From a virus: 64,000 nucleotides of DNA. A model generated the notes under the pieces. It was not told the origin of the DNA and did not search any database. It saw nothing but the letters and a program-made list of their open reading frames with translations. How positions within the stretch are numbered: the stretch's first letter is position 1; the number at the start of each line of letters is the position of its first letter. The stretch lies in IMG/VR virus record IMGVR_UViG_3300045988_100778, positions 32,001 through 96,000 of that record. The stretch is one strand, 5' to 3'. Below are positions 1,636 through 31,262 of this stretch, in pieces. Position numbers and translations under genes: made by a program.

Positions 1636-3279
1636 ATGGCATCAACGTTTATTTTCAATGGTCGCCAGATTTCCTTACCAGGTGTTTACTCCACTATTGT
1701 AAGTGGGGAAATGAATCCGGCAAGAAATCTCGACTACGGAAAAGTCCTTATTATTGATACCGGAACGTACTCAGCCGGATTTGGCGGCGGTGCAGGTATT
1801 AATGGCGAAAATGCGCAGGGACAAAACGCTATCTATACTTTCGACAATATCGCGGATTTTCGTGCTTTCATGAAGGGAGGTCTTTGGTGGAGGGTTGCCG
1901 AAGCTCTGTTTGCACCAGACCCCTCAAACCCCGACGCAGTAGGAATTTCCGAGCTTGAATTTGTTCGTGCAGCGACAACTACAGGCGCAACAATGACGTT
2001 TGTGACGGCAGCAGGAGGCACGTTTGCGGTAAAAACATTGGACGAAGGTTTGGTAGCCAACGGTTCGTTATTGAACGACGAGTTATTGACAAAAGGTTAC
2101 GGTATGAACTTTATCGCAGGACGCGAAGACGCTACCAAGTGGATTTTGCAGTTCTGGAGAGGTACATATACTGGAAAATACAGCGACGGTTTACCCTACG
2201 GAGACATCACGCAGGAAAACAGCGACCCCGAACTTGTTCTTGAATCACCGGAATTCAGTACCATGCAAGAGCTTGTGGATTGGGCACAGAATGATTCTAA
2301 TTTTGCTTTGGCATTTGTGCTTGATTCAACTACCAATGTAAAAGGAAATGGTGAGATTACCGAAGGGGACATTACAATGGCACTGGACGGTAAGCCTTAT
2401 ATTTTGGCAGCAGGCGGTGCGGAAAGTTTCGACATGGACAACTTCAACGCTGTACTTGACCAGATTGTAGGTTTGGACTACAGTAACGTTATTTTAGACC
2501 AGGTAGGAGGCAACGCCTATTCAGCTACGACAAAAGCATACATTACACACATGAACGGTGCAGCCAAATTCCAGCATTTCCTCTATGTGGCAGGATATGA
2601 CAAGGGAGCGGATTTCTCAAAGGAAATCGATTTGGCGAAAAAGTTTGACAGTTCGTTCGTGCAGCTTGTACACGGTGGAGCTGGCGTAGTGTCCGCATTT
2701 GACGCTCAGAAGATACGGTGGTGGGGAGTTATGTATAACTTGTGCGCCATTGTAGGACGTATTAGCGGCAAGCCGCCTTATGTACCGCCTACATTCAAGT
2801 CTATAGGTGTTGACAGATTGCAACACTCGTTGACTGAATCGGAGCAGAAGAAGGCGTTGAAATATGGTATTCTGACAACTGTATTGAACGATTACACAGG
2901 AAAGTTCAATATCTTGCAGGGTGTGAATACATTGCAGGACAACGCTAACTTGTTCAATGCAAAAGGGCAGTCCTATTCCATTCAGTTTATGCGTATTGTC
3001 GCACAAATCAATAAGGAATTGATTGTAAATGCAACGCTTGACTTGCTGGGACAGGAAAACGGTGTTAACGCCAATACATTGACAGCAGGAGCGGTTAAGG
3101 ACTGGACTGTGGCATACTTGCAGTCAAGAACCGCAACGGACGCACAGGATAATCTGATTTTGTCGTTCAAAGATGTGGCGACAACAAGAAAGGAAGACGC
3201 TTATTTTACCACCTACAAAATTGTGGTAAATAACGAAATCACTAAGTTGTTCTTTACTGGATATTTAATTCGTGGATAA
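1636..3279 (+). CDS. contractile tail sheath protein
   Basis: 547 aa; N-terminus ..ISLPGVYSTIV.. resembles the sheath N-terminal PGVY motif; followed by a tube-sized ORF; assigned by eye. Confidence 0.6.
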   Translation: MASTFIFNGRQISLPGVYSTIVSGEMNPARNLDYGKVLIIDTGTYSAGFGGGAGINGENAQGQNAIYTFDNIADFRAFMKGGLWWRVAEALFAPDPSNPDAVGISELEFVRAATTTGATMTFVTAAGGTFAVKTLDEGLVANGSLLNDELLTKGYGMNFIAGREDATKWILQFWRGTYTGKYSDGLPYGDITQENSDPELVLESPEFSTMQELVDWAQNDSNFALAFVLDSTTNVKGNGEITEGDITMALDGKPYILAAGGAESFDMDNFNAVLDQIVGLDYSNVILDQVGGNAYSATTKAYITHMNGAAKFQHFLYVAGYDKGADFSKEIDLAKKFDSSFVQLVHGGAGVVSAFDAQKIRWWGVMYNLCAIVGRISGKPPYVPPTFKSIGVDRLQHSLTESEQKKALKYGILTTVLNDYTGKFNILQGVNTLQDNANLFNAKGQSYSIQFMRIVAQINKELIVNATLDLLGQENGVNANTLTAGAVKDWTVAYLQSRTATDAQDNLILSFKDVATTRKEDAYFTTYKIVVNNEITKLFFTGYLIRG

Positions 3280-5010: not shown

Positions 5011-5488
5011 CAGGAGGATTGAAACAGCCATTGAAAGGATTATAGAATATCTTTTCAATTACACCCCCAACCTTAAGAGAACCCGGTCAAAAATAGAACT
5101 TATGGAAAAGTTCTGGGAAAAGACCGGGATTTCCTCTAATAGGGCATTATGGGAATATATGGTGTTTCAAGGGTCAATGATAGAGAACAGCCGATATAAG
5201 GAAATGATGTTTGACCCCTATAATTTGATAGGACCAAAGGCGATAGAGAAATGGAATAAGAGGGGTAAATACCAGGTATTCATAGCCAATAAACGCCAGC
5301 GAGAAAGAGGATGGATAAGCCCGTTTAAGGAGAAGGAAGAGGGTTTATCTGAAAGATACAGGGAGATGTTGAGGAAAAAGTATTGGAACAAGGAGAAGGG
5401 GTTTATACTTTGCAGCCAGTACGGAGGATGGTTATTCGACAAAAACAGATGTAAGGATTGTATATTTTACAAGGCTTGTGAAAAATGA
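4946..5488 (+). CDS. hypothetical protein (start uncertain)
   Basis: 180-aa ORF overlapping the previous gene; candidate starts at 4946, 4964 and 4982; Cys-containing C-terminus CKDCIFYKAC. Confidence 0.4.
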   Translation: MRRRRLMICKRTMIQQKDCGDNRRIETAIERIIEYLFNYTPNLKRTRSKIELMEKFWEKTGISSNRALWEYMVFQGSMIENSRYKEMMFDPYNLIGPKAIEKWNKRGKYQVFIANKRQRERGWISPFKEKEEGLSERYREMLRKKYWNKEKGFILCSQYGGWLFDKNRCKDCIFYKACEK

Positions 5489-5602
5489 CATACTAAAAGT
5501 TTATGTTATCAAATAATATTTGTATATTTGTGCCATGAAAAAGACAGTGGGTAACTATATAGAACTTTGCACTAAAAATTATATAAATAAATAGGAAATT
5601 TA

Positions 5603-5626
5603 AAATATTCTATTTATATTTGTGGT
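5603..5626 (+). promoter_or_regulatory. putative -7 box directly upstream of tnpB
   Basis: TAtaTTTG at 5615-5622, only 4 nt before ATG 5627; a near-duplicate box lies at 5523-5530 before a 19-codon mini-ORF. Confidence 0.35.
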
Positions 5627-6841
5627 ATGTATTTAACGGAACAACATATAATAACAGTTAATGATAAGAGGTACAAGGATTTAGACCGGATTTGTTTCTT
5701 ATCCAAGAACTTGTATAATGCGGCTTTATATATCATAAAGCAAGAATTTCTTGTTTCCGGGAAATGGATAAGGTCTGTAGAACTTAATAAAAAGATGGTT
5801 GCAGAAAACAATGTTGATTTTAGGGCTATGAGCGGTTCCTCTTCCCAGCAAATTTTAATGGCTTTGGATAAGAATTTGAAATCTTATTTTTCAGCCATTA
5901 AAGCATGGAAAAGGGATAACAAGAAATTTACCGGATGCCCTAAATTTCCGAAATACAAACATAAGACAAAAGGAAGAAATGTATTTTCTTATTCTTATGT
6001 GCAATTCAGACATAAAGGAGAATATATTTACTTTCCAAAGAAAGAAGGTCTGAAACCGTTAAAAACGAAATGCAAGGAAGGAACAGTTAAGCAAGTCAGA
6101 TTTGTGCCGAAAGCAGATTGTTATGTAATAGAATTGGTATATGAATCAGAAGTAAAGGAACAGTTACTAAACAACAATAGATATATGTCTATTGATTTGG
6201 GGGTTAACAATCTTGCTTCTATTGTAACGAATACGAGTAACAGGGCTGTTTTGGTAGATGGCAAGAAATTAAAGTCTATCAACCAGTATTATAACAAGAA
6301 AAAATCTAAAGTTCAATCACAATTAAAGAAAACAAATGGAAAGGAAAATTCGAGACGGCTAATGAACCTTACAAGAAAAAGAAACAATAAGGTCAAGGAT
6401 TATTTGCATAAGGCAAGCAAGGAAATTGTAAGCATGTGCTTGAAAGACAACATAACTACATTGATAGTAGGACATAATGACGGATGGAAACAAGAAGTAA
6501 ATATGGGTAAAAGAAACAATCAGAATTTTGTTTCAATTCCGTTTGAAACTTTCATATCAATGTTAAGGTATAAATCTGAAAGACAAGGACTAAGATTTGT
6601 TGAAATAAACGAATCTCACACGTCAAAATGCAGTTCTTTAGATTTAGAAGAGGTAAAACATCATGATAGTTATATTGGAAAGAGAGTAAAAAGAGGTCTT
6701 TTCAGAACAAAGGACGGAATTTTACTCAATGCAGATATAAACGGAGCCTATAATATTATGAGAAAAGTAAAGGGGGATGCAGCAATGCCACCCTATAGAG
6801 GGTTTGGGTATAACCCAGTTAAGAAATTTATTAACAAATAG
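5627..6841 (+). CDS. tnpB: TnpB-like (IS200/IS605 OrfB family) RuvC-fold protein, no tnpA partner
   Basis: SIDLGVNNLAS (RuvC-I Asp), NESHTSKCS and NADINGAYNIMRK (RuvC-III Asp); 404 aa; region looks more AT-rich than its flanks. Confidence 0.8.
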   Translation: MYLTEQHIITVNDKRYKDLDRICFLSKNLYNAALYIIKQEFLVSGKWIRSVELNKKMVAENNVDFRAMSGSSSQQILMALDKNLKSYFSAIKAWKRDNKKFTGCPKFPKYKHKTKGRNVFSYSYVQFRHKGEYIYFPKKEGLKPLKTKCKEGTVKQVRFVPKADCYVIELVYESEVKEQLLNNNRYMSIDLGVNNLASIVTNTSNRAVLVDGKKLKSINQYYNKKKSKVQSQLKKTNGKENSRRLMNLTRKRNNKVKDYLHKASKEIVSMCLKDNITTLIVGHNDGWKQEVNMGKRNNQNFVSIPFETFISMLRYKSERQGLRFVEINESHTSKCSSLDLEEVKHHDSYIGKRVKRGLFRTKDGILLNADINGAYNIMRKVKGDAAMPPYRGFGYNPVKKFINK

Positions 6842-6855
6842 ATACAAGTGTAAAC

Positions 6856-7296
6856 ATGTATATAATTACCAAGACAGTGAAGGAAGAAGTAAGACCGTGT
6901 GTTTCTTGTAAGGAGAACCATTTCATATACGACCGTAACAGATGGTTATGTAAGGAATGCTACGACAATAGAAAGAAATTGAAGTTGAACCGCGCTTCAT
7001 TGAAGGAAGAGGAAAACAGGCTTAACGAAGTGTTTGTTAAGGTATGGGAGGAGAACCCCCACTATTGTTTCCATTGTGGAAAGTGGCTGGGGCTTGAAAT
7101 GAAACCTATTTTCTTCTCCCATATATTGAGTAGGGGCGCGCATCCCGGTTTACGTTGTGACCCGGAAAACATAGTTTTGGCATGTATGGAATGCCATCAG
7201 ATATACGATTTCGGAGACAGAAACAGTCTGAAGAACCAGATACCGGAAGAGAGGATAGAAAAACTTTTGGAGAAAGAGCATGGGAAAAGATATTGA
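6856..7296 (+). CDS. NinG/HNH-like zinc-binding nuclease
   Basis: CVSC..CKEC N-terminal ribbon; HYCFHCG..SHILSRGAHPGLRCDPENIVLACMECH resembles the NinG/HNH pattern. Confidence 0.45.
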   Translation: MYIITKTVKEEVRPCVSCKENHFIYDRNRWLCKECYDNRKKLKLNRASLKEEENRLNEVFVKVWEENPHYCFHCGKWLGLEMKPIFFSHILSRGAHPGLRCDPENIVLACMECHQIYDFGDRNSLKNQIPEERIEKLLEKEHGKRY

Positions 7297-7675
7297 TTTA
7301 CTGATAGGATGCGCAGAAGTGTTTACCGCTATAGGACTGAAAAGGATTTCCAGAATGATAGTGGATTACCTGGAGAACCCTAATAGCGAGAAGGCGGAAA
7401 TATTTCAGAAAGAGGTTGAGGCATGGAAGGAATACGAGGAACGTTCAAAAGGCAGAATGTTTGTGTTCAGTGACGGGGAACACGCCCTTATGAAGTATTT
7501 CATTATATCATATGAAAAAGACTGGTATTCGGACGGGAACCCGGCTATAGTGATAAACAAGCTGGCAGATGAAAGTGCATCATTCAAGGACAACCCTATA
7601 AAGAATTTATGGGTAGTGTATAAGAGTGAGGAAGACCGGGACAGGGATTTTGAAAGATTGTTGATAATAAAATAA
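7280..7675 (+). CDS. hypothetical protein
   Basis: 131-aa same-strand ORF overlapping its neighbour; no motif recognised. Confidence 0.4.
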   Translation: MGKDIDLLIGCAEVFTAIGLKRISRMIVDYLENPNSEKAEIFQKEVEAWKEYEERSKGRMFVFSDGEHALMKYFIISYEKDWYSDGNPAIVINKLADESASFKDNPIKNLWVVYKSEEDRDRDFERLLIIK

Positions 7676-8643: not shown

Positions 8644-9297
8644 GTGAAAACAAGTAGTAATTTCGTGATTGTCTATGACTTTGAAACCGGGGGATTGCCA
8701 AGCAAGGAGAAGCAGGCTTTTTTGGACATCCCTTTGGTAGAAATGGCTATGTCGTGCATAGACATGAAAAAGTTGGAAATAATAGACCGTGCAGAAATGA
8801 TATTCCCGTATAACTACAAGGAAGGACTTGCAGGATATTCGGAGGAAGCAACGGCAGTACACGGCATAACAAAAGAAGTCCAAGAAGAGAATGCGGTGCC
8901 ATTGAAAGAGATATACAGCACTTGCAAGAAATGGTTCGCCAAATACAAGAATCCACGCCAGATGTGTACGCTTGTAGGGCACAATATCGTAGGATTCGAT
9001 AACCCGTTTCTGAAAAACTTCTTCGCCTACATGAACGACGATATAGACAATTACGTAAAATACTACATAGACACGATGCAGTTTGCACACATGGTAGCTT
9101 TGGAGCAGATGGACTACAAGCTGGGCACGTGTTGCCAGGCTGCCGGGATTGACCTTGTGGAAGCGCACAGGGCGCAGCACGATGTGGATGCGAACGCGAT
9201 GTTGTTCATTTCCTACGTGAAGAAGTTAAGGGGTGAAGGCGTGGAAACGGTGGAGAAGAAAGAAAGGAGATATAGAGAGGACTTCCAGTTATGTTGA
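8644..9297 (+). CDS. DnaQ-like DEDDh 3'-5' exonuclease
   Basis: ExoI VYDFETGG, ExoII GHNIVGFDNPFL, ExoIII HRAQHDVDA; needs GTG start at 8644 because no in-frame ATG precedes ExoI. Confidence 0.8.
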   Translation: MKTSSNFVIVYDFETGGLPSKEKQAFLDIPLVEMAMSCIDMKKLEIIDRAEMIFPYNYKEGLAGYSEEATAVHGITKEVQEENAVPLKEIYSTCKKWFAKYKNPRQMCTLVGHNIVGFDNPFLKNFFAYMNDDIDNYVKYYIDTMQFAHMVALEQMDYKLGTCCQAAGIDLVEAHRAQHDVDANAMLFISYVKKLRGEGVETVEKKERRYREDFQLC

Positions 9298-11405
9298 CGG
9301 GTGACGGAAAAGGAATACTTACAAATAATCAGCTTACATATCTGTACAATGCGGTAGACAATATCATAGAGAGACTGCCGGAAAGGGCGCTTAACCAGTT
9401 GTTGGAAGGATATGGAAACGACGTTGATACCATGCTTAGGGAAATGGTGCATCAGTCGGAAAAGGCGCTGTATCTGGGTCGGACGCTGGATTCAGAAAGT
9501 TTATCCTATGTGGATAACGTGAAAGCCTCTATGGACAATACGCTTAAAATATTGTCCCTCAATTATTTCATAACAACCATGTTGCCTAAATTCCGGTTAG
9601 GGTGGCGTAATATAGAGTGGGGAAATCTCACTCAATTATACCCGTGGAGTTGTTATTTATGCGCCCGGGCGAGTGGCAAGTGCATGAGTGCTGATACATT
9701 GGTTGTAATGTATGATGGGGCTTTGAAGAAGATTCAAGATATAGAAGTTGGTGATAAAGTGATGGGTGTTGATTCAACACCGCGTACAGTGCTGCAATTA
9801 CATAAAGGTGTTGCACCTATGTATAAAGTGAGACAGTCCAAAGGAATGACTTATGAAGTGAATGAAGGACACTTGCTTTGCTGTTATTATAACGGTTATT
9901 TCATTGATGTAGAAGTAGATGCTGTATGTAGACAACAGAAAGATATAAGAAAGTTGTTTCTGGGATATAAAGTCAAGAATATAGGGAAAGGAACACCAGA
10001 ATTTGATTATTCTTCATTGAAGATTGAACCTATTGGAGAGGGGGAATATTATGGTTTTGCGTGCGATGGAGACCATAAGTTTTTATTGGAGGATGGGACG
10101 GTTGTACATAACAGTTATCAATGGTCTTATGCCTTTATTCTGTGGCGTTTATGGTCCTACACAAGACCGACTGCATATAGACAAGACACGGTAGACAATG
10201 CCAACCGGAAAGAAACATGCTATATTACCAATACTTTTACACTGGCAAAGGTGCAGATAGCGAAAGTGACGGAAGAGATAGAGGCGAACGACTTAATAAA
10301 GGAAAAACTGAACCCTTATAATAAGGCTTCAATCGGAGAAACAGCCATAAAGACGGAAACGGGGAGTACGCTGCATGTACGCGGTAAGGATTCAATGATT
10401 CGCGGTCTGCATGTGGGGGCTTGCTTGTGTGACGATATGCCGGATGAAAGCTCCCTATATTCGGACGAACAAAGAGAGAAATTGAAAGAACTTCTGAAAG
10501 GTACTATAGAACCGATTGTAGAGCCATACGGTTACTTTCTTGTAACTGGTACGCCTTATTCTTCTGCACCGAATGAATTGTACCAGATATTGAAGGCAGA
10601 CAAGCGTTTCTATTGTTTTGAATATCCGATATTGTTTCCGGATGGCAGACCGTTGGCACCAGACAGATACACGTTTGAACAGATATTGGCGAAAAAGGAA
10701 GAACTTGGAACGATTGTGTTCAACCGTGAATACTTGGTGGTTCCTATCAGTGACACGTCAACGATATTTCCGTATGAATATCTGATGCGTAGCGTTATAG
10801 GAATGGAAACGATACGTTTTGCGTCAAGTATAGACGATTTTCCTTTCAAGCTTACAAGGGTACATATAGGTGTGGACTTTGCGGTTTCCGGTAATATTGG
10901 AGCGGACTATACAGTGTATTCGGTATGGGGCAAAGATGCGATGGATAACTACTATTTGTTGTACTATTACCGGAAGCGCGGTATGTCGCATAACGAACAG
11001 GTGGATAAGATTGTACAGCTTGACCGACTTTTCCACCCCAATAAGATACGGTGTGAGGCAAACGGTTTCCAGTCCATATTGTCCGGACTGGCAAAGGAAA
11101 GAGGGCTTAAGAATATAGAACCATTTACGACAACGGAAGGAAACAAGAAAGATTTGTATACTGGACTACCTTCTTTGTCCGCAATGTTTGAAAGAGGACA
11201 GATAAAATGCCCCTATGCGATAGGAGAAACGAGGCAGGCGGTTGACTTGATGTTCGGTGAATTTTCTTCTATTACATTTAGAAGTGATAACGGGAAATTG
11301 GAGGCGGCAAGTGGTCACGATGACGTGGTAATGTCGTCGTTCATTTCCTTAAATAGCTTACGCGAAGACGATAAAGAAGTACAAGTAAGTGTAGAATTAA
11401 TATAA
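9291..11405 (+). CDS. terL: terminase large subunit, interrupted by a mini-intein
   Basis: Walker A ARASGK|S split by the intein; Walker B LCDDMPDE; nuclease-domain motifs IGVDFAVSG and GHDDVVMS. Confidence 0.85.
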   Translation: MLTGDGKGILTNNQLTYLYNAVDNIIERLPERALNQLLEGYGNDVDTMLREMVHQSEKALYLGRTLDSESLSYVDNVKASMDNTLKILSLNYFITTMLPKFRLGWRNIEWGNLTQLYPWSCYLCARASGKCMSADTLVVMYDGALKKIQDIEVGDKVMGVDSTPRTVLQLHKGVAPMYKVRQSKGMTYEVNEGHLLCCYYNGYFIDVEVDAVCRQQKDIRKLFLGYKVKNIGKGTPEFDYSSLKIEPIGEGEYYGFACDGDHKFLLEDGTVVHNSYQWSYAFILWRLWSYTRPTAYRQDTVDNANRKETCYITNTFTLAKVQIAKVTEEIEANDLIKEKLNPYNKASIGETAIKTETGSTLHVRGKDSMIRGLHVGACLCDDMPDESSLYSDEQREKLKELLKGTIEPIVEPYGYFLVTGTPYSSAPNELYQILKADKRFYCFEYPILFPDGRPLAPDRYTFEQILAKKEELGTIVFNREYLVVPISDTSTIFPYEYLMRSVIGMETIRFASSIDDFPFKLTRVHIGVDFAVSGNIGADYTVYSVWGKDAMDNYYLLYYYRKRGMSHNEQVDKIVQLDRLFHPNKIRCEANGFQSILSGLAKERGLKNIEPFTTTEGNKKDLYTGLPSLSAMFERGQIKCPYAIGETRQAVDLMFGEFSSITFRSDNGKLEAASGHDDVVMSSFISLNSLREDDKEVQVSVELI
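9681..10112 (+). mobile_element. mini-intein (144 aa, no homing endonuclease domain) in the TerL P-loop
   Basis: Starts with Cys (CMSADTLVV..), block B NEGHLL, ends ..DGTVVHN followed by Ser+1; removal restores GKS. Confidence 0.85.
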
Positions 11406-20976: not shown

Positions 20977-23900
20977 ATGATTACTAAGACAGCGAATACG
21001 ATTGCAAATTTAAAGAATTTGTGGATTGAAATGTTTTTAAACAAGACCGACCGTGTTTCAAACATTGCGGACGGTTCTGTACTTAATGGCGTCGCTTATG
21101 GTACCGCAAAGGTGGCGCAAAAAGCGATAAAGGATATTGCCATAGTGGAGGCGCAGATTTTCCCAAAGTCGGCAACAGGCGATTATCTGGACAAATCGGC
21201 CGCGTTGTTCGGTGTAAGTCCGAGAAAAGAAGCGCTTGGCTCCTCTACTTATGTACGTGTTTTTGCCGAGCCTGGCACGCATTATGAGGTAGGAACAAAG
21301 TTTATTTCAAAGAACGGAGTGCAATTTACTGTAGACCAACCTTTTACGGTTGATAAGTCGGGATATGGATATATCAGTGTAAGAAGCGTTATCACTGGGT
21401 CTGCTACCAATGTGGAGGCAAACAGTATTACGGAAGTATCGCCAAGACCATTGACACATATAGAGTGCACGAATGAATATGCGGCTATCGGTGGACGTGA
21501 TTATGAGGACGACGAGACATTCAGAAACAGAATAATAAATTATAATAACAAGCTTTCCACTGACACTATGGAAGGCTGGACGCAAATATTCCAGGATTTA
21601 GACCCGCGCATTTTAAAGGTAATGAATGTTGGGCTGGGTGAGGACGGAAAGACACACATTTACCTTGTAACCCAAAACGGGTCTTTCTTTACGGATGATG
21701 AATTGGAAGAATTGCTTACAAAAGCTACACCCTATTTCGGACTGACCGAACTTGACTTGCAAGGGAATACGCTTGGAATTGTGATAGAAAATGCAAAATG
21801 GATGTATGTAGGCGGTGAAGAGGGGGTGGATTTCCGTGTGGAATTGTCGCCTAATGCAGTGATTGCGGATGTAAGAAAAAATATCCAGATTGCAATGACG
21901 AAGTATCTGGATTTCCGTTTCTGGGAAGCAGGCAAAAAGGTAGAATGGGATGATTTGCTGGAAGTGGTGAAGACTGCGGAAGGCGTTAAGTATGTACCGG
22001 ACGAATATTTCTTTCCCTATTTTGACGAAGAGGTGCCTTTGAACATGTTGCCGCGTATCAAGGGATTCAGAATGCGAGACTTGGAAGGGAATATTCTGTA
22101 TGATTCGGGCAGCAGTTTGTCCAATATTTTTTATCCGGCAGGAGAAAGCGACATATATAAAGGTTCTCAATCGGTTATAGCGTCACAGAAATATTTGTGT
22201 TCATTTACCGTAACCAATACCAAGAATGTAGCCGTACCGGGCGCATATATAACAATAGGAAACAAGGTAATCATTACGGACAGTAACGGTACGGCAAACA
22301 TTCTTTTGGAAAATGGGGAATACACATACATATTGTCAAAAACGAACTGGACACAGAAGACAGGGGAGTTTGTTGTTCTGAACAATCCTATTTACATAAA
22401 CATAAATGATTTTATTGCAACACCCTATCCGGTTACGTTTACTGTATATGAAGGTGAAGCGCCCTTGCAGGGAGTGACTGTAACTACAAGCGTTTACACG
22501 TCAGAAACGGACGATAAGGGGCAGGCAGTCATTAACCTGGAGCCGGGAACCTACGAATACAAGCTTGAAAAGTCGGGTTTCCAGACCATAGAAAGCGTAT
22601 TTACGGTCGAAAATCAGCCAGTAGACATATTTCAAAGAATGTTTCTTACAAAAATGAATGTAAATTTTGCTGTAATTGACAGAAACAGAAGTATTTACAT
22701 TCCGGAAGCAAACATCACAATAAATGACATAAAGGAAAAGACGGATAACGAAGGGCAGGCAAGTATGGGATTGCAAACCGGGAAATACGAAATGAGGGTT
22801 GCAAAAGAAGACTATCAAGACCTTGTAAAGGAAATTGAGATTGTTGGGGAAGACCCTAATTGTATTCTCGTCGAAATGACGGCAATTCCGTATGCGATAA
22901 AGTTTACGGTGCTGGATTCTGCTACCCACATGGTTCTGGAAGGAGCAACGATAAAGATAAATGGTTCTACCTATCTGACCGACAAGGAAGGTATAGCGAT
23001 TATAAGTTTGCCGAACGGAACCTATGAATATACGGTTTTCAAGTCCGGTTATATGTCCGTTAATGATTTTGTAGTGGTGGAAGGTTCGGAAGTTTCTAAA
23101 ATTGTGGAATTGGAACAAGCTTTCTATACATTCCGCTTGACTGTACGGGACATTGAAAACGGTAACTATATCCAGGGTGCAGAATTGCAGATAAACGGAG
23201 AGACGCGTGTAACGAACGTCAACGGTGTTGCAAGCGTAACACTTGGAAACGGTGACTATGAATATACGGTAACGCACAGAAACTATAAGAGATATACCGG
23301 AACTGTGACTATCAAAGACCAGGACGTGCCGGAAACAATTTACTTGGAATTGAGAGATACGGTAATAACATACACTGCAACGGACGCGATAACGAAGGCT
23401 CCTATTTCCGGCGTATATATCGAATTGATAAACAAGGGAACTGGAATTAAGGTGGATTCCGGTTACACGAATGATATAGGTGTATTGCAGCTTGGAGCGG
23501 AAGCAGGGGAATATACTTGGAATGCGACACACAGATATTATGATGCGGTAGAAAACCAGTCGATAACGCTTGAAAAATTGAAGGATATAGACCTTCCCTT
23601 TACTATGACAAGAAGGGAAATCGAACCGGAAGTTGACGTAATAGAGAATATCCCCGGTGTGTCCGGTGATGCTACTACAGTAAGGTTCAGTGGTGAAAAT
23701 ACGGCTGAGACGTTATCTAATGACAGTTATTATTACATAGTTCATACACCGGAAAACTTCGTTATTCCTAACAAAGGGGTGACGTTTGATTTGATGGAAC
23801 ATGTAAAAACTTTTCGACGTGCAGAAATTGGCGGTGAGGACGAGCCATACGATTTTGCAAGTGGAGGTGCAGAATTGGTATTCAACGTATCGAATGACGA

Positions 23901-26900
23901 AATAGCTTCTTTGGAAGGTACGATGTTGACAGTGCAGCCGAATGTGACACGTGATGCACAGCCGAGAACTTTCTATGTGGATGTGACGATAACGACTCCG
24001 GTAAGCCAGGTGACTGTAAAGATAACTGCTGAACAGAAAGCTGCTCTGAACTTCAATCCGGTTAAGGACGGAATTGTCGTTTCGGTAAAAAATATGTACA
24101 ATGATAATGTACGGGAATATACGACGAACGCGGCAGGAAAGATATTTCCGGAAGTGATGTTGGGTATTGACTATCAGTTGACAATAAAGGAGAAAGGTTT
24201 CTACGAGAACAACGGCTTGCTGATTAAGAACTGGGGCTTCGGTGCGAGTGTACCTACACTGATGGAAATAACGGCTTCAAAAAGGCTTGAATTGAGAGTA
24301 AAACAGCAGAATACCCTAAGACCGCTTGAAAATGCGACTATAAAGGTGTCCGGAATGTCACTGCCTCAAACCGTTACGTCCGGAAGTGATGGTTCGGCAA
24401 GAGTGTACATTTCACCTATTGCAATGAGCTATGAGTGTACAGTAACAGACCATACGAAAAAGACTGGAACATTCACACCCCCGTTGTCGGCTGATTATAT
24501 GGATATAATCATGGGTTATGCTGCAATGACATTCAGTCTGACATTAACAGCAAGTAACCCCTATTCCAAGGCGGCAGAAAGTTGTCCGGTAACGGTTACG
24601 AGTGCATGGAGCGGAACATCTTCACAATCATATAGTTTTTCTGGAACAACGGATGCAAGCGGACAATTGACATCACAAGGAAATGGAAATTTCAATATAC
24701 CGCCTGGAAATTATACGATAACCTATGGAGGTGGAAACAGTAATTTCGACGGTAAGACAGAAAATATCTATCTGCCTACGGACAAGACGCATTCAGCAGT
24801 ATTAACAAGAAGAACGAAATCAGTCACATTCACGGTAAAGGAAATAATACCCTCTATTTCGACTACAGCATCAAATCCGGTAAAGACAGGTCTTGTGCTT
24901 GCATGCTATTACAACGACAATAGTACATCTTCGGGTGCGAATGTAACGACGAATGCAAGCGGACAATTTACAAAAACAGTGTATGCAGGAATTGCAGAAC
25001 GTTTCCAGGTGCAACCAATAGGATTCTATTCTGGAAACGGTGCAATAGCTACAGTCAATTATAAAGATGCAAACACAAAAGACCTTGTATATACATGTTC
25101 AAAGAGAATTCCGGTATATATCACATCCAATCTGTATGGTGAGTTAAGTGGCGCATCAGTGACGTTCAACGGAATGTCTGTGAACCAGACAGGAACGACC
25201 AATACGGACGGGATAGTGCAAATGTACATATCTCCGGTAAATATGTCTTACAGTGTAAGCAAGCAGCATTACAATACCAAGACTGGGAATTTCAAGCCTA
25301 CCGGAACAGAAACAAGAATGGATATTGAATTGGAGGCGAAGGAGTACCCGGTCACTTTCCATGTGTCAACACAAGGAGTTTTGCCACCGGACGGAATTTT
25401 GGTACGTGTGACAAACAACGCATTGCCGGACATTGTATTTGAGGGCGAGACGAATGTGGAAGGAACGATAGTCATGCCGAATGTTCCGGTAGGAGAATAC
25501 ACCTATGATGTTCTTGCAGGTGAGGTTTCATCCGACACATTCTTCCATCCTCAAAGTGAAAGTGGTACAGTGTTGGATGTAGAAGTGCAATATGAATTGA
25601 TTAACGCAGGTATTCAAGTTTCGGAGGTGTATGGTACGGCAGGAAGGGCGTATCTGTCAAATCAGACTATTACAATGACTTCCAAGGCAGGAACGATAAA
25701 GCTTACTTTGGATGAGAACGGTTATACCAATCAGTTATTAATAAAGGGATTGGAATACACGTTTACGACTGATTCATACCCGGCTTTTTATAGCAACCCG
25801 ACACAATCCTATACATGGACCGAAGACGGTGTGATATGGCCGTTCAACTTGAATGTGACCTCAAAGATAACGGTCAATGTAAAGGATGTATATGTGAAAA
25901 ACAATATCCAGGGAGTAACGGTAGCTTACAACGAACAGATAGTGACGACGGATGCAAGCGGTAACGCTTCATTGTTCCGGTCAGCACTGACAAAGGACTA
26001 TTCTTTGGATAAAGAGGATTATAGTACAGTAAATGGAACCATTGCACCTACCACGGCTTCACCACTCAATGTCACGATGTTGAGAAACAAACATGTAGTG
26101 ACGGTACAGCAGTATGAAGTAATACCAGGTGGTGCGAGTGTAATTTTGGACGGTGGTTATAATTTTACTCTTAATTATACATCAGCAGCAGGAAACGGAA
26201 CTATTAGTAGTGGTACAAATACATTTGAGGCATATATCGGCATTCCTATCACATTTGCAATAGTAGCAGAGAACAGAAGGGTATTTTATAGTAATCCAAC
26301 TCAAACCCATACATTTACATCGGCAGGTGAGAAATGGAACATGAATCTTACTTGTGCGAAACAGATAACCGTAAATGTGAAAGACAATGTGCCTGGCGCG
26401 AATGTACAGGGAGCTACGATAAACTATTTTACACAGACAAAAACGACGGATGCGAGCGGAAACGCAGTCTTTTATTGGAGTGGTTCAGACCCACGTAATA
26501 TATCAGTAAGTGCTTCAAATCTGGAATCTTATACCGGACAGATAGCTTACAATTCACCAAATCCGTTCAATGTTGTAATGACACGTGCAGCCAATCCGGT
26601 TACACTTGTAGTAAGAGAAATAACGCCAGCACAAACAACTTATTATCAGAACTTACAGATAAAATACACGGTAGGAAGTGCAACCGGAACACTTACTACA
26701 AATGCGAACGGTGCAGTGACATTCAATGGATATATAGGTACGGAAATGACGTTTACGGTAGTGGGACATCCGGAATTTTACAGCAACCCGACACAGAAAC
26801 ACACCTATACAGCCGCCAATCAGTCATGGACTATGGATTTGACGGTAACAGCAAAGATAACGATTAATGTCAAATCGAATGTACCGAGCGGAACAAATTT

Positions 26901-29900
26901 GAGTAGAGCTACCGTATCATATTTTCATCAGACAGGGACAACGGACAATAGCGGTAATGTATCATTGTATAGGAGTTCTGTAACAAGAAATGTAGATATT
27001 ACAGCGACATATCACGGTAATTATAGAGGCAGTATAACGTCAGACACCGCGTCTCCGTTCAACGCGGTAATGACGCGTTCAACCGCGACAGTAAGTCTTG
27101 GAGTGAGTGAAGTTGTTCGGGTTACTCCTAAATACATGCTCGAAATCACTACGGATGCAAGTTCTGCTGTAACTCCTAGATTAGGTGGCTTCTATTTTGG
27201 TACACCAACAGCAGCAAATAAGGAGTTTGTGGCGTATTTTAGAGCAAAGATTCCGGCTGATAGAAAGCTTATTTTTGCAAGTAATGCAACAGGTGACAAC
27301 CCTATAAGAAAATGGGTTAATTCAAATGACGGAAAAGGAACAGGAGGATGGTACACTTATGCCTACTATGTAAGATGCGGTTCTACTGGAAGGTTTTCAA
27401 CAACCAATTTTTTCTATATAGAGGGTGGAAGTAGACCGATTACATGGTATCTCGAAATGGCAACGGTATTCGACATAACCGGAAGCAATGTTCAGAATAA
27501 ATCGGATGCCGAGATTTTAAGTAAGTGTACTTTTGATAGAATGTTGTCTGGCAATAAAGACTTTTTGTTCAATGAAGGCTCGAACAGAATAAGATGGTAC
27601 AATAATTCTAATACAAATGCTGTAACAGTGACAAGAAAGGCGGCTTCTGGAACAGACACGTTTAATTTCACGATGGCAACTTATGCGTCTATGAAGATGA
27701 ATTTCAGTCCGGCAGCTTCTACAAGTCCTTTGACACTTGATACAAACGGTAATGTGTCTTTTGTATGCTATTTAGGTACGCCAGTAACATTCACACCGAC
27801 AACAAGAGCTAATTATTACAGTAATCCAAATACTGCACTGACTTATACAGCAGCAGGACAGTTCCAGGGAATATATCTGATTTGTAACCAAAAGATAACC
27901 ATTAATACAGTAGCGAATATCTACAATACAAGTAATGCACTTGCAGGAACGATAACCTATTTCGGACAGACACTTCCGTCTGGAGGAAGCTTCTATAGAA
28001 GCGGATTAGACAGACAAATGACCGCCACGGCACAGTATTTCAACAACTACGTAGGAACAGTTACCGCCACACAGACATCACCCTATACAGTGACGATGAA
28101 CAGGACGACAAGAACAGTAACATTGATTGTTAGGGAATCAGTAGGTAGCAATGAATATACATTGAGTAATGCGGTGATAGTAAGAAGTGTTCCGTCTACT
28201 TCAAATGCTCCGGCAGGAGAAATAACACTGGACGCAAACGGAAAGAAAACGAATACTGTATATGCAGGTATAAGCTACACCTATACACCAAAGAATTACG
28301 CAAGCTATTACAGCAATGCAAGCCAGGGTCATACATGGACGAGTGAAAACGAGCAATGGATTATGACATTGAATGTGACGGCACGTCTGACATTCAACAT
28401 AAAGAGTTCTAATTATGGGACAAATATAAGTGGAGTATCATGTTCCTATTTAGGACAGACTGGAACGACTGATTCCAGTGGTAACTGGACTGTATACAGA
28501 AGTGGTATAAGTAGAAGCTACTCATTCTCGAAAACAAATTACAATGCGTTATCCGGTACATTATCGGCAGCACAAGCAAGTCCGTTGAACTTGAAAATGA
28601 GTGAGACAAGTTCTTCTATCACTATAACAATAAAGGACTATTATCAGAGTGCCGTAAAAGGAAATGCGAACGGATGTCCGGTAACGCTGACGAACAAGAG
28701 CCTTTCTTCTATCACGTTCACGGGAACGACAAACAGTAGCGGACAGGTGAGTTTCGGACCCATGATAGCAGGTTCATATACATTGTCATGGGGTGGAGGA
28801 ACAAGTTATTGGGTAAATGGAAGTACCACGATAACAATGCCTACAGCAACAACTACACAGAATGCTGTAAGATTGACGAAGATTGTAGGTAATGTATTTT
28901 ATTTCCAAACACCAGCTACAGGAACGGCATTCAAATATTGGGCCGTAAATACTTTATTGAAGCCAGTATATACCACTGGAGGAGTGGCGACAACAGTAAC
29001 TTTGGTAAAATCGGGTGCGACATATTATGATATAGGAAACTACACGTACATTGCAGGTATAGCAACGACAATAAGTACGGCAGTAGCGACATATTTCAGA
29101 ACCGGAAGTTCTACCAACACTGCTTCCGTATATTCTGTCACTCCTACGTACAACTTTAACAATATACCGGGTGTCACAAGTTCAGCGCCTTTATGTTCGT
29201 ATGCGATAAAGGGTATTGTAGTGACTGTACAGAACAGCTATACAAATGCGGCTGTAAATGGAGCCACAATAAAGATGTATGGTATAAACGGTAGTAATGT
29301 TGTTGGAGGCGCAGGAGATGGTGCAGTACAGACTGTAACGACAAACAGTGCAGGACAGGCGACAGTATATATATCTGGACTGACAAACAGATACATAGTA
29401 AGTGCGACAAGATACGTGACATTAAACACCACCAACACGAACACCTCTAACTTTACAATCAAGCTGGTACCGTCGGAAGTGACAATAACAATAAACGTAA
29501 ACAACGCGAGTACAGGTTCAAGAGTAGGAAGTGGTGTAATAGTGAAGCTGTCAAGTAACAACACCAGCACGACATATAGCGGCACTACAAACTCGTCCGG
29601 ACAGGTGGTACTGAAGATAAAGCCGGGCAATTATTGGTGGGAAGCAGGAGGTAGCACGACCTGGGGAGGAAACGGAACAGGAACATGGAATTATCCGAAC
29701 CGTTCCACTACCTCAATCTCTCTCATCAAAGACCAGTCCATAACAATAGAGGCTCTAAAGGTAGGGGTGTGGGTTGATAGTGGAAGTGTGTATTTTGGAT
29801 TTAAAAATAACGAAAGTTTTTATACTGGTATAAATAGAGAAAATGGAGGGTCTGATTATATAGCTCATATCGGCAGTAGTCAAGCATTTATGATGAATAT

Positions 29901-31257
29901 ACCGTCTGATGTAAATACTTCAAATTATACGGTAAAAAAATTCTTATATTCATTTTCAAGACCTGGAATTGCTGCTCCATTTATAAATGCTTCTGTAATA
30001 ACAACTTCTTCCAATGGTTCTTTTCAATATAATATCGGAACTGACTTTAGTTCAAGTGAAGTCTTAATGGCAGATTTTCTTTATCTGTCTCTTTGGGGTG
30101 AAGCTTCTTATAATTACACTTTTGTAATGTATAGTGTAACAAGATATTCATTAGCGGCTTATTATTGTCAAATAAGAATTTTAAAACAGACTGGTCAAAT
30201 GCAACAATCTACATATTTTTTGCAAGAAGTTAGTTATGATGATTTGCCATACATAAAAGATATTTTAAATAATTTTTGTTACAAGAATTATTACGTTCCT
30301 TTATTGAATTATGGAGAAAACCAGGATGATAATTATATTTATATAGTAACGGGAATGGATTGTTTCGAATCTACTGATTATGTAATAAGTTATTCTATAG
30401 ATTATCAGAATACACCTGGGAGTCTTTGGAGCAGAAACCGTCTTCAAATTAGTGGTAATTCGAGAGTAAGTTCTGGTGCTGTAAAGAGATTCTTGTTTAC
30501 ACAAAGTAGTCACGAACTTTCCGTACTGGTATATGGTAAAAGAAATGATGTAAATAATAAATGCCATGCTGCTGTGTTATCGTTTAAAAGTTCAGAATGG
30601 AGTCATATAAGAAGTGGTTCAATCGCCAATAATGTTTGGTCTGTATATGACAATTTCCCGGCTGCATTTACTGACAAAATGGGTAATAATATGTGGGTTT
30701 CAAGTAATCTGAAATGGATGTTTGCTGTTTTGTATGGAACAACAGACAAACCGTATGGAAAGGGCCTCGTTACTGTAAAGAGTGCAACACCTATTATTGG
30801 GAAAACTGGCTGGTCTTTAACTACTTATTATATAGATGATGATTCAACATTGGAAATACGAAATGCAGTTGCTAATAAATACGTTCTTGATATTATTTTC
30901 AATAGCACTGACTATAAGATGATTGTATTATGTAACAGTCTGATAGGTTCTGGATTAGACCAAGATACTTATTATTCTTTTATCAGTCCAGATTATTTAT
31001 ATTGCTTTGTTTATAACGGAAAGAAATGGATGGAATTTTCAAAAGAGAGTGTAGGAATGAGTACGTTGTGGAATAGATATGATAATTATAAGACAATACC
31101 TGGCGGTGGAACGTTTGTCGATTACAAACCTTATTTTAATGTTATGGGTGTTACTGGTATATATGATAGTAACAGAAATATTTCTTTTGTCTATCCAGCA
31201 AAATATTCAACTTATGAACCAACAGCTTATGAATATAGTCTGACATTTGGTGATTGA
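20977..31257 (+). CDS. giant baseplate-J domain / repeat-array tail fibre fusion (3426 aa)
   Basis: N-terminal ~390 aa match the Baseplate_J pattern (..ATGDYLDKSAALFGVSPR.., ..AAIGGRDYEDDETFRNRI..). More than two dozen prealbumin/carboxypeptidase-regulatory-like repeats follow (..GATIKINGSTYLTDKEGIAIISLPNGTYEYTV..). Distinct C-terminal domain ends LTFGD. Confidence 0.8.
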   Translation: MITKTANTIANLKNLWIEMFLNKTDRVSNIADGSVLNGVAYGTAKVAQKAIKDIAIVEAQIFPKSATGDYLDKSAALFGVSPRKEALGSSTYVRVFAEPGTHYEVGTKFISKNGVQFTVDQPFTVDKSGYGYISVRSVITGSATNVEANSITEVSPRPLTHIECTNEYAAIGGRDYEDDETFRNRIINYNNKLSTDTMEGWTQIFQDLDPRILKVMNVGLGEDGKTHIYLVTQNGSFFTDDELEELLTKATPYFGLTELDLQGNTLGIVIENAKWMYVGGEEGVDFRVELSPNAVIADVRKNIQIAMTKYLDFRFWEAGKKVEWDDLLEVVKTAEGVKYVPDEYFFPYFDEEVPLNMLPRIKGFRMRDLEGNILYDSGSSLSNIFYPAGESDIYKGSQSVIASQKYLCSFTVTNTKNVAVPGAYITIGNKVIITDSNGTANILLENGEYTYILSKTNWTQKTGEFVVLNNPIYININDFIATPYPVTFTVYEGEAPLQGVTVTTSVYTSETDDKGQAVINLEPGTYEYKLEKSGFQTIESVFTVENQPVDIFQRMFLTKMNVNFAVIDRNRSIYIPEANITINDIKEKTDNEGQASMGLQTGKYEMRVAKEDYQDLVKEIEIVGEDPNCILVEMTAIPYAIKFTVLDSATHMVLEGATIKINGSTYLTDKEGIAIISLPNGTYEYTVFKSGYMSVNDFVVVEGSEVSKIVELEQAFYTFRLTVRDIENGNYIQGAELQINGETRVTNVNGVASVTLGNGDYEYTVTHRNYKRYTGTVTIKDQDVPETIYLELRDTVITYTATDAITKAPISGVYIELINKGTGIKVDSGYTNDIGVLQLGAEAGEYTWNATHRYYDAVENQSITLEKLKDIDLPFTMTRREIEPEVDVIENIPGVSGDATTVRFSGENTAETLSNDSYYYIVHTPENFVIPNKGVTFDLMEHVKTFRRAEIGGEDEPYDFASGGAELVFNVSNDEIASLEGTMLTVQPNVTRDAQPRTFYVDVTITTPVSQVTVKITAEQKAALNFNPVKDGIVVSVKNMYNDNVREYTTNAAGKIFPEVMLGIDYQLTIKEKGFYENNGLLIKNWGFGASVPTLMEITASKRLELRVKQQNTLRPLENATIKVSGMSLPQTVTSGSDGSARVYISPIAMSYECTVTDHTKKTGTFTPPLSADYMDIIMGYAAMTFSLTLTASNPYSKAAESCPVTVTSAWSGTSSQSYSFSGTTDASGQLTSQGNGNFNIPPGNYTITYGGGNSNFDGKTENIYLPTDKTHSAVLTRRTKSVTFTVKEIIPSISTTASNPVKTGLVLACYYNDNSTSSGANVTTNASGQFTKTVYAGIAERFQVQPIGFYSGNGAIATVNYKDANTKDLVYTCSKRIPVYITSNLYGELSGASVTFNGMSVNQTGTTNTDGIVQMYISPVNMSYSVSKQHYNTKTGNFKPTGTETRMDIELEAKEYPVTFHVSTQGVLPPDGILVRVTNNALPDIVFEGETNVEGTIVMPNVPVGEYTYDVLAGEVSSDTFFHPQSESGTVLDVEVQYELINAGIQVSEVYGTAGRAYLSNQTITMTSKAGTIKLTLDENGYTNQLLIKGLEYTFTTDSYPAFYSNPTQSYTWTEDGVIWPFNLNVTSKITVNVKDVYVKNNIQGVTVAYNEQIVTTDASGNASLFRSALTKDYSLDKEDYSTVNGTIAPTTASPLNVTMLRNKHVVTVQQYEVIPGGASVILDGGYNFTLNYTSAAGNGTISSGTNTFEAYIGIPITFAIVAENRRVFYSNPTQTHTFTSAGEKWNMNLTCAKQITVNVKDNVPGANVQGATINYFTQTKTTDASGNAVFYWSGSDPRNISVSASNLESYTGQIAYNSPNPFNVVMTRAANPVTLVVREITPAQTTYYQNLQIKYTVGSATGTLTTNANGAVTFNGYIGTEMTFTVVGHPEFYSNPTQKHTYTAANQSWTMDLTVTAKITINVKSNVPSGTNLSRATVSYFHQTGTTDNSGNVSLYRSSVTRNVDITATYHGNYRGSITSDTASPFNAVMTRSTATVSLGVSEVVRVTPKYMLEITTDASSAVTPRLGGFYFGTPTAANKEFVAYFRAKIPADRKLIFASNATGDNPIRKWVNSNDGKGTGGWYTYAYYVRCGSTGRFSTTNFFYIEGGSRPITWYLEMATVFDITGSNVQNKSDAEILSKCTFDRMLSGNKDFLFNEGSNRIRWYNNSNTNAVTVTRKAASGTDTFNFTMATYASMKMNFSPAASTSPLTLDTNGNVSFVCYLGTPVTFTPTTRANYYSNPNTALTYTAAGQFQGIYLICNQKITINTVANIYNTSNALAGTITYFGQTLPSGGSFYRSGLDRQMTATAQYFNNYVGTVTATQTSPYTVTMNRTTRTVTLIVRESVGSNEYTLSNAVIVRSVPSTSNAPAGEITLDANGKKTNTVYAGISYTYTPKNYASYYSNASQGHTWTSENEQWIMTLNVTARLTFNIKSSNYGTNISGVSCSYLGQTGTTDSSGNWTVYRSGISRSYSFSKTNYNALSGTLSAAQASPLNLKMSETSSSITITIKDYYQSAVKGNANGCPVTLTNKSLSSITFTGTTNSSGQVSFGPMIAGSYTLSWGGGTSYWVNGSTTITMPTATTTQNAVRLTKIVGNVFYFQTPATGTAFKYWAVNTLLKPVYTTGGVATTVTLVKSGATYYDIGNYTYIAGIATTISTAVATYFRTGSSTNTASVYSVTPTYNFNNIPGVTSSAPLCSYAIKGIVVTVQNSYTNAAVNGATIKMYGINGSNVVGGAGDGAVQTVTTNSAGQATVYISGLTNRYIVSATRYVTLNTTNTNTSNFTIKLVPSEVTITINVNNASTGSRVGSGVIVKLSSNNTSTTYSGTTNSSGQVVLKIKPGNYWWEAGGSTTWGGNGTGTWNYPNRSTTSISLIKDQSITIEALKVGVWVDSGSVYFGFKNNESFYTGINRENGGSDYIAHIGSSQAFMMNIPSDVNTSNYTVKKFLYSFSRPGIAAPFINASVITTSSNGSFQYNIGTDFSSSEVLMADFLYLSLWGEASYNYTFVMYSVTRYSLAAYYCQIRILKQTGQMQQSTYFLQEVSYDDLPYIKDILNNFCYKNYYVPLLNYGENQDDNYIYIVTGMDCFESTDYVISYSIDYQNTPGSLWSRNRLQISGNSRVSSGAVKRFLFTQSSHELSVLVYGKRNDVNNKCHAAVLSFKSSEWSHIRSGSIANNVWSVYDNFPAAFTDKMGNNMWVSSNLKWMFAVLYGTTDKPYGKGLVTVKSATPIIGKTGWSLTTYYIDDDSTLEIRNAVANKYVLDIIFNSTDYKMIVLCNSLIGSGLDQDTYYSFISPDYLYCFVYNGKKWMEFSKESVGMSTLWNRYDNYKTIPGGGTFVDYKPYFNVMGVTGIYDSNRNISFVYPAKYSTYEPTAYEYSLTFGD
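22190..29696 (+). repeat. array of ~60-90-aa beta-sandwich (CarboxypepD_reg-like) coding repeats
   Basis: Recurring pattern V.V.....G..TD..G.A...L..G.Y.Y.....Y, read directly from the translation. Confidence 0.7.
29697..29774 (+). repeat. inverted repeat, left arm (IR-L), inside the giant fibre ORF
   Basis: Checked base by base: identical to the reverse complement of 32831-32908; encodes NRSTTSISLIKDQSITIEALKVGVWV. Confidence 0.95.
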
Positions 31258-31262
31258 TTTAA

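Follow-up and report, generated by a model that had tools for sequence, protein, structure and literature searches.

Prokaryotic TnpB nucleases rarely pair with DDE transposons, and a 2026 review lists ISL2, IS630 and IS1031 as the only partners (PMC13565253). In these associations TnpB sits inside a transposon with symmetrical inverted ends, and solo TnpB copies share their ends with transposase-bearing copies, implying mobilisation in trans. Here we describe an element that resembles them in both respects and differs from them in its DDE family. It occupies positions 5550-6870 (1,321 bp) of a 64,000-nucleotide stretch of viral DNA (hereafter the window; positions 32,001 to 96,000 of IMG/VR record IMGVR_UViG_3300045988_100778), carries a tnpB gene for a protein of 404 amino acids (aa) at 5627-6841, and has ends of the IS1595 type, a family that is not among the three listed. 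Unless stated otherwise, the features of the element and its flanks (5523-7296) lie on the plus strand. In a further difference from the known associations, only phage genomes hold the TnpB element, and the transposase element with the same ends occurs mainly in Parabacteroides chromosomes. The enzyme type is thus known; the novelty appears to lie in its vehicle, since a TnpB-omega RNA module makes up the sole cargo of a non-autonomous IS1595-type element, and a full-text literature search for TnpB together with IS1595 gave no relevant match.

Ends, target duplication and the IS1595 transposase

The element is delimited by 24-bp imperfect terminal inverted repeats and flanked by a 9-bp target duplication. 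The left repeat (GGTAACTATATAGAACTTTGCACT, 5550-5573) is where homology with a copy in MT835500, a human-gut phage record, and with 80 viral loci begins. The right repeat (6847-6870, minus strand, reverse complement GGTAATTATATACATGTTTACACT) agrees with it at 19 of 24 positions, as read from the sequence, and overlaps the loop and 3′ arm of a predicted RNA hairpin, P4, which is described below. Immediately outside the two, a repeat search placed the direct repeat AAGACAGTG at 5541-5549 and 6871-6879. The same search needs an exact 8-nt seed and did not return the inverted repeats, whose arms share no such seed; their call rests on cross-locus comparison and on a pattern search in which the 12-nt core of the left repeat gave eight matches against 1.1 expected. 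In MT835500, the TnpB copy (87.6% aa identity) is set between different genes and the DNA similarity is limited to approximately 5546-6870 of the window, and comparison of the 80 viral loci fixes the left end as GGTAACTATATA... and the right end as ...TATATAATTACC. The preliminary description of this DNA had delimited the feature as 5489-6855 and saw no space for a right end. The unit is instead 5550-6870 with its direct repeats; it reaches 29 nt beyond the tnpB stop codon, and the next ATG (6856) lies inside the right end.

The site is also known in its uninterrupted form. The predicted empty site, defined as the window sequence minus the element and one copy of the direct repeat, reads ATGAAAAAGACAGTGAAGGAAGAAGT and has an exact match in 39 viral contigs, 37 of which can be aligned over 1,071 bp spanning the junction with no gaps (90-99% identity); many of these contigs hold the element at another position. 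Scans found tnpB copies at more than 257 viral loci, and hundreds are full-length with intact ends, which argues that the pattern did not arise by chance. The element occurs in 17 or more different genomic contexts, most other copies lying in intergenic spacers, and the 17 independent sites with a duplication include 14 with exactly 8 bp and the window's with 9 bp. The search for further copies proposed in the preliminary description has in this way defined the element ends and a target-adjacent motif (TAM)-like signature, albeit from copies that lie in phages and not in cellular genomes.

Inverted repeats combined with a target duplication exclude the mechanics of IS605 and IS607. Compared with ISDra2, the window element lacks a Y1 TnpA and subterminal hairpin ends and has inverted repeats and an 8-9-bp duplication, so neither the enzyme nor the end type of an IS200/IS605 insertion sequence (IS) was found; an IS607 element would come with a serine recombinase, GG crossover ends and no duplication, and here duplications of 8-9 bp are seen at many sites. 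Pfam scans of 26 open reading frames (ORFs) of the window found no Y1 transposase, serine recombinase/resolvase or DDE transposase, in line with the earlier remark that tnpA is missing. The carrier itself, a non-autonomous IS1595-type element and neither IS605 nor IS607, had been overlooked. Nor is the phage element simply a host IS: with each species represented by a single genome, the closest cellular relatives of its TnpB do not exceed 51% identity, and the cyanobacterial ones have asymmetric ends and no duplication, unlike the phage copies. The window's exact TnpB is found on 19 contigs, none of them longer than 108 kb.

The link to a transposase lies in the ends. A scan of viral contigs with the 14-mer GGTAACTATATACC gave mostly chance matches and a sole inverted pair, in locus L298. 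The element at this locus (3,071 bp, no tnpB) is bounded on each side by the 23-bp repeat GGTAACTATATACCAGTTTGCA(G/C), is flanked by an 8-bp duplication, and encodes a 305-aa protein that matches Pfam DDE_Tnp_IS1595 with E = 1e-48. The ends of L298 and of L401 are identical to the left and right ends of a 403-aa TnpB subfamily, the 12-nt core of the L298 ends is the core of the window's left repeat, and the phage flanks of L298 are 87-92% identical to flanks of phages with TnpB elements. A protein identical to the L298 transposase is named 'IS1595 family transposase [Parabacteroides]' and is present on more than 1,000 contigs of up to 4.1 Mb; gut metagenomes yielded 348 transposase relatives and 28 autonomous insertions of 2.1-3.8 kb with exact 8-bp duplications. 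IS1595 is a prokaryotic relative of the eukaryotic Merlin elements. Since members of this family prefer A/T-rich 8-bp targets (PMC12561309), the A/T-rich duplications of the TnpB element, 8 bp at at least 14 sites and 9 bp in the window, agree with the 8 bp (7-9 bp) expected of IS1595. With IS1595 elements that carry passengers (ISNwi1-like group) the TnpB element shares 8-bp A/T-rich duplications, repeats starting GG...TAT and ends identical to those of an element encoding DDE_Tnp_IS1595, and it differs from them in that it has no transposase of its own and that its passenger is an RNA-guided nuclease. The element ends apparently resemble ggnnatTAT, the end consensus of the ISNwi1 group in the ISfinder tables. 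From the anatomy alone, we are highly confident that 5550-6870 is a non-autonomous IS1595-type element carrying tnpB, and the ends shared with a transposase element, together with the duplication length, suggest that it is probably moved in trans by an IS1595 transposase.

Some further observations concern the two kinds of element more generally. The autonomous IS1595 elements L410-L489 have differing small passenger ORFs, and the passengers of L298 include a zinc-ribbon membrane-like protein of 289 aa; the IS1595 family with these ends seems prone to cargo pickup. Among the TnpB copies, one left flank is joined to several right flanks without matching duplication in L011, L013, L015, L020 and L028 (and in L012 compared with L021/L023), which suggests that deletions or recombination took place beside the right end, or between copies of the element. 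L034/L035, L071-L078, L010 and L036 have no left inverted repeat, and in them tnpB directly follows a phage structural or other gene. These copies are apparently immobilised with their right end kept, and a look for a transposase in longer or left-end-less copies found only phage genes before tnpB in L071 and L034. Finally, in a sister TnpB family (L161-L200, 407 aa) the elements end in ATCACC on the right, the covarying terminal hairpin is longer and the 8-bp duplications mostly begin with T; single phage genomes such as 3300045988_095930 (L145 and L187) and _088318 (L080 and L174) can hold one element of each family.

TnpB fold and rearranged active site

In 2023, Altae-Tran et al. described large clades of TnpB with Gly in place of the RuvC-II Glu and an alternative Glu that compensates for it, as in RuvX; they predicted these RuvC-II rearranged (RIIr) proteins to be active and noted that some large branches have lost the zinc finger (PMC10691335). 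Yoon et al. (2023) named the same position alternative Glu (Ealt) and showed activity for an IS607 TnpB (PMC10711439). Judged by its profile matches, the 404-aa ORF of the window is a genuine TnpB: the hallmark motifs quoted in the preliminary description are present, and the product reaches 191 bits against NCBIfam guided_TnpB (cut-off 100), 86 bits against Pfam OrfB_IS605 and 45 bits against Cas12f1-like_TNB. An AlphaFold2 model built with 20 homologues has a mean predicted local distance difference test score of 83.8 and strands at 278-283 and 323-328. In Foldseek, it matched the ISDra2 TnpB ternary complex 8h1j (template modelling score, TM, 0.64/0.70; E = 3e-14) and the mimivirus Fanzor2 9b0l (TMq 0.67), and it superposes on AsCas12f too, so that model and matches together display the WED/REC/RuvC fold of TnpB. 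The structural comparison with ISDra2 TnpB that had been proposed earlier therefore finds a common fold, with a residue other than Glu at the canonical RuvC-II position in the alignments to solved chains.

The protein does not have the canonical D-E-D triad. While D190 (RuvC-I) and D370 (RuvC-III) are canonical, the residue at the RuvC-II position is G282 (TLIVGHN) when the protein is aligned, by profile or pairwise, with Cas12f and TnpB-like chains of solved structure; a Gly had already been suspected there by eye. The relocated Glu had been sought a few positions later, but E290 (KQE) is variable among homologues (S, N, K or G), and the invariant Glu is E329 (NESHTS), 47 residues downstream of G282; it follows directly after strand 323-328, and G282 closes strand 278-283. 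D190, G282, E329 and D370 are invariant in a homologue alignment extending to 52% identity, and D190/E329/D370 stay so down to approximately 40% identity (20 close and 17 cellular relatives). Of the zinc ribbon CxxC...CxxC a single Cys, C335, is left, as the preliminary description had noted, and the CCCC zinc finger is missing in all 20 + 14 aligned relatives and in the 17 cellular relatives. The latter, from cyanobacteria, Bacilli, Clostridia and Bacteroidota (40-51% identity), have Gly at RuvC-II, (E/N)ESYTSK and no CxxC. By these alignments, Gly at RuvC-II and the missing zinc ribbon are a clade-wide trait, and one already described as RIIr/Ealt TnpBs, a circumstance that had escaped the first reading of the sequence.

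The likeness to the RIIr proteins (PMC10691335) and to the Ealt proteins or pro-Fanzors (PMC10711439) is close: Gly stands for the RuvC-II Glu, the conserved Glu directly follows the next β-strand, three residues before the TS of xTSxxC, RuvC-III reads NADxN, and zinc-finger loss has its parallel in branches of the RIIr survey. One difference is that CxxC...CxxC is a compulsory part of the pattern with which Yoon et al. searched for Ealt proteins, and the window's clade does not have it. ISDra2 TnpB shares the fold with the window protein, which differs from it in its moved catalytic Glu and lack of a zinc finger. Fanzors of eukaryotic DDE transposons also have a relocated Glu, and their carriers also have inverted repeats and target duplications; compared with them, the window TnpB is of prokaryotic size and without insertions. 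Among the options raised in the preliminary description, the evidence favours an active nuclease with a rearranged triad, given that D190/E329/D370 are invariant and that the arrangement is the published RIIr/Ealt configuration predicted to be active.

Selection on the gene bears on the same question. The ratio of nonsynonymous to synonymous substitution rates (dN/dS) between copies of tnpB is 0.05-0.09 (about 0.06), which indicates strong purifying selection, and the protein is therefore neither decaying nor obviously dead. A decaying insertion sequence, another of the options raised before, would account for the transposase missing from element and window and for the left end lost in some relatives. 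Such a relic is contradicted by the low dN/dS, by an ORF and two ends that are intact, by full-length copies at more than 250 viral loci, hundreds of copies having intact ends, and by a site that is polymorphic, with occupied and empty forms; we therefore reject this reading and give it next to no probability.

Predicted omega RNA, guide and TAM-like motif

In characterised systems, TnpB guides lie directly after the element end (PMC10711439). As in the OMEGA system of ISDra2, we predict for the window a scaffold that runs over the 3′ end of tnpB and finishes at the right end, a guide taken from the flanking DNA, and a logic in which the empty site is cut. The 3′ part of this predicted omega-RNA scaffold (6772-6870) overlaps the 3′ end of tnpB, finishes at the right repeat and consists of four helices, P1-P4, and a tail; its 5′ limit may lie near 6550. 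P1 (6772-6775 with 6791-6794) encloses an inner GNRA hairpin, GCA-GCAA-UGC, at 6779-6788, and an invariant AUAGAGG (6795-6801) stands between P1 and P2 (6800-6803 with 6813-6816), both stems being predicted by RNAalifold with covariation. P3 (6818-6822 with 6831-6835) was obtained from single-sequence folding and from a compensating hairpin in the sister family, and the terminal hairpin P4 (6842-6849 with 6854-6861, GUAA loop) covaries among subfamilies. The tail, AUAAUUACC (6862-6870), comprises the last bases of the element.

Two signals carry this prediction. Third-codon-position conservation among 53 distinct copies is approximately 0.75 over most of tnpB and rises up to 0.90-0.96 at 6550-6640 and 0.93-0.99 at 6760-6850. 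RNAalifold was applied to phage lineages first and then to 18 phage and cellular relatives: the arms of P1 exchange sequence between lineages (GGG/CCC to CCC/GGG), and in P1 and P2 combined 92.3% of cells are paired. Shuffling lowers this to 70.7%, with none of 500 shuffles attaining the original figure, and sliding the partner lowers it to 32-50%; 10 of the 12 pairs show compensatory changes on both sides. Synonymous constraint and covariation thus both point to a structured RNA over the 3′ end of tnpB that finishes at the right end of the element. Folding the 3′ region as a single sequence was uninformative (z = -0.95 for 131 nt, -2.7 for 331 nt), which is why the RNA prediction is based on comparative analysis, and an Rfam scan of 5300-7300 at permissive E-values gave chance-level matches only and no omega-RNA family. 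The suggestion in the preliminary description that a guide RNA would overlap the end of the ORF and the start of the next gene gains support from the covariation and from the position of the predicted RNA at the right end.

Because the scaffold is inferred to finish at 6870, the predicted guide would consist of the duplicated target and the first codons of the next gene. With an assumed length of approximately 16-20 nt, it corresponds to 6871-6890, that is, the right copy of the duplication (6871-6879) and downstream phage sequence, and it matches the empty sites of the 39 contigs. On the other side of the target, TAA precedes the duplication (positions -3 to -1) at 16 of 17 TnpB-element sites but at only 6 of 29 transposase-element sites (Fisher p = 1.2e-6), and the first duplicated base is A at 16 of the 17. 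In the sister family with the right end ATCACC, the junction motif is TTA or TAA, followed by T. The skew between the two kinds of element and the different motif in the sister family indicate that the junction motif tracks the nuclease and not the transposase, and the TAA beside the duplication is likely a TAM; a bias of this sort is expected if TnpB maintains or spreads only insertions adjoining its TAM. This TAM, unlike that of ISDra2, would not be the target motif of the transposase. The comparison with Fanzors is instructive here. There, too, the transposase determines the end sequences that the RNA has to accommodate, but the duplication is short and fixed, its 5′ copy belonging to the TAM and its 3′ copy to the scaffold (PMC13565253). 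The duplication of the present element varies in sequence and spans 8 bp, so that it must form part of the guide and leave the TAM outside.

The TAA signature and the abundance of the element could alternatively reflect nothing but target choice and activity of the transposase, with TnpB and its RNA as passive cargo that has another or no present role. Such an explanation would agree with the A/T-rich 8-bp targets of the IS1595 family (PMC12561309), with the fact that some autonomous insertions (6 of 29) follow TAA as well, and with the varied passenger genes of the 2.1-3.8-kb autonomous relatives. We nevertheless consider it quite unlikely: the difference in TAA adjacency is strong, the deviating motif of the sister family is what one would expect if the motif follows the nuclease, and a dN/dS of 0.06 together with synonymous-site constraint over the RNA implies that the cargo is under selection.

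The position of the predicted guide over the 5′ end of the next gene also invites comparison with TldR proteins, which are likewise TnpB relatives found in phage or prophage DNA without a transposase. A nuclease-dead or silent RNA-guided DNA binder that regulates a phage gene, e.g., the neighbouring HNH-like gene, was among the options of the preliminary description, and the missing canonical RuvC-II Glu and zinc ribbon would be in keeping with it. TldRs have lost catalytic residues, or are truncated, and are fixed beside the genes that they regulate. By contrast, the window TnpB has a full-length C-terminus and keeps D190, E329 and D370, which are invariant across the clade, and its arrangement is viewed as active in the literature (PMC10691335); the element is mobile, occurs in 17 or more contexts and has a different flank, and so a different guide, at each site; and at the right junction of the element itself it is the repeat, in place of TAA, that stands before the target. 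Taken together, these observations make a TldR-like role very unlikely.

A proposed homing model and its genomic setting

The functional model that we propose, which combines the IS1595 vehicle, an active TnpB, the omega RNA and homing, is in our view fairly likely as a whole. New insertions would be made in trans by an IS1595-family DDE transposase, encoded by the chromosome of a Bacteroidales host or by a copy in a co-resident phage. TnpB would act as an active nuclease on the rearranged triad, in which the Glu follows strand 5 and no longer closes strand 4, and would be guided by an RNA whose scaffold finishes at ...AUAAUUACC (6870) and whose guide is the duplicated target plus adjacent phage sequence. 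It would recognise only the uninterrupted allele, where 5′-TAA and target adjoin and the guide matches in full. The occupied allele would escape, as its left copy matches the guide for 8-9 nt only and its right copy adjoins the repeat where TAA would be needed. A cut in the empty allele of a co-infecting or sister phage would then lead homologous recombination, for which the window's RecA homologue could serve, to copy the element in, the outcome being homing or restoration after excision. Homing would explain both the abundance of the TnpB element in these phages and its near-exclusive adjacency to TAA. It is tempting to go one step further and to speculate, tentatively and at somewhat less than even chances, that we are looking at a two-part gene drive in virulent gut phages, in which a nuclease captured by the cut-and-paste IS1595 DDE family relies on the host transposase to seed rare insertions, while TnpB homing spreads and retains those adjacent to TAA; here the variable 8-bp duplication would supply the first part of the guide and the TAM would lie outside it, unlike in Fanzors.

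A cut without copying could be enough if TnpB were a weapon in phage-phage competition, cleaving element-minus co-infecting relatives in the first codons of a conserved gene and excluding their markers. The predicted guide does match the empty allele in 39 related contigs, element-plus and element-minus genomes coexist in one sample collection, and phage homing nucleases are known as exclusion devices (PMC13565253). However, such a cut would promote copying too, so that exclusion would be an added benefit rather than an alternative, and most other copies lie in intergenic spacers and the window's site has no TAA motif; as a replacement for homing we consider it unlikely.

Several findings weigh against the homing model and the steps leading to it. 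In contrast to the known DDE-associated TnpBs, a tblastn search of TnpB against all IS1595 loci gave no element with both tnpB and the transposase, and autonomous copies are rare in viral contigs (9 loci, compared with more than 257 TnpB loci). The hairpin P4 also occurs at the right end of the transposase element, which is without tnpB, and it is therefore an IS-end feature that has been reused and not proof of an omega RNA, while P1 and P2 overlap conserved codons (RGFG.NP), so that part of their conservation stems from coding. The lost zinc ribbon could affect the stability or activity of TnpB. The window's own site, with AAA before a 9-bp duplication, is the sole exception to the TAA rule, and this copy may be unable to home. 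Finally, the TAA excess could be the target preference of an unsampled transposase variant.

At the present site, the insertion falls after codon 5 of a downstream gene of 146 aa with a weak HNH match (6856-7296). The native start of this gene, ATG AAA AAG ACA GTG (MKKTV, 5535-5549, including the left copy of the duplication), is stranded upstream of the element, and its TATATTTG box (5523-5530), a TAnnTTTG sequence of the Bacteroidota -7 type as read from the sequence, is now cut off from most of the gene. The gene as rebuilt would begin MYIIT-KTVKEEV..., compared with the native MK-KTVKEEV, at a new ATG (6856) that is supplied by the right end of the element within the 3′ arm of P4. This ATG exists owing to a T-to-A change, allele ACATGTAT, which costs one base pair of P4, other copies carrying ACTTGTAT; we infer that the downstream gene uses it. 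A second TATATTTG box (5615-5622), the element's own promoter-like site, lies 4 nt before the ATG of tnpB, and 5590-5620 is conserved at 96% across the 53 distinct copies. We take both TAnnTTTG boxes to be promoters by the Bacteroidota consensus. The 27-nt blocks 5511-5537 and 5603-5629 are 78% identical, AAATA..TATATTTGTG.(C/T)ATG, each with its TAnnTTTG box 4 nt before the ATG, and by this resemblance the start of tnpB apparently copies the phage's own leaderless-looking promoter-start layout.

Elsewhere in the window, a 547-aa protein (1636-3279) has its nearest relatives in Chryseobacterium phage MA9V-3 and Bacteroides phages DAC/SJC, and related phage contigs are approximately 100-108 kb long. 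A crAss-like assignment, considered because of the giant ORFs at 20977-31257 (3,426 aa) and 32989-38457 (1,822 aa), was rejected on the basis of the 547-aa protein. The RecA homologue (59721-60692) is full and scores 252 bits, and the window also encodes a PHP/Pol III alpha-like protein (51821-55904), apparently split over two ORFs, and a DnaB-like helicase. In the 704-aa terminase-like ORF (9291-11405) there appears to be an intein-like insert (CMSADTLVVMYDG ... VVHNS), judged by eye. Two sequences recall the element ends. A near-perfect palindrome with 23-bp arms (31262-31322) lies between the convergent ORFs 20977-31257 (+) and 31342-32697, the latter being the only long minus-strand ORF, and each arm holds GTAACTATATACC, 13 of the first 14 bases of the inverted repeat common to the IS1595 and TnpB elements; no direct repeats flank the palindrome, which therefore resembles a bidirectional terminator. 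The exact 12-mer TATATAATTACC of the element's right end recurs at 57810-57821, between the stop of a 445-aa ORF and a hairpin rich in G+C, GGAAGGGTAATTTCTACCCTTCC. This 12-mer may be what is left of a right end on its own, or due to chance, and its flank had no match among the fetched loci.

The interest of this locus lies in the partnership with IS1595 and not in the unusual active site of its TnpB. IS1595 would be added to the DDE partners of prokaryotic TnpB, and on comparative evidence the TnpB element appears to be abundant and widespread in gut phages of Bacteroidales, with insertion sites that bear a nuclease-specific TAM-like signature. As these inverted repeats bound elements that have the nuclease and elements that lack it, and the sites of the two differ in this signature (16/17 versus 6/29), the contribution of TnpB can be tested directly. 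A compact nuclease of approximately 400 aa, with no zinc finger and a short A/T-rich TAM, would also offer a possible tool. If homing is true, abundant Bacteroidales gut phages carry an RNA-programmed homing element that would affect the flow of markers between co-infecting phages.

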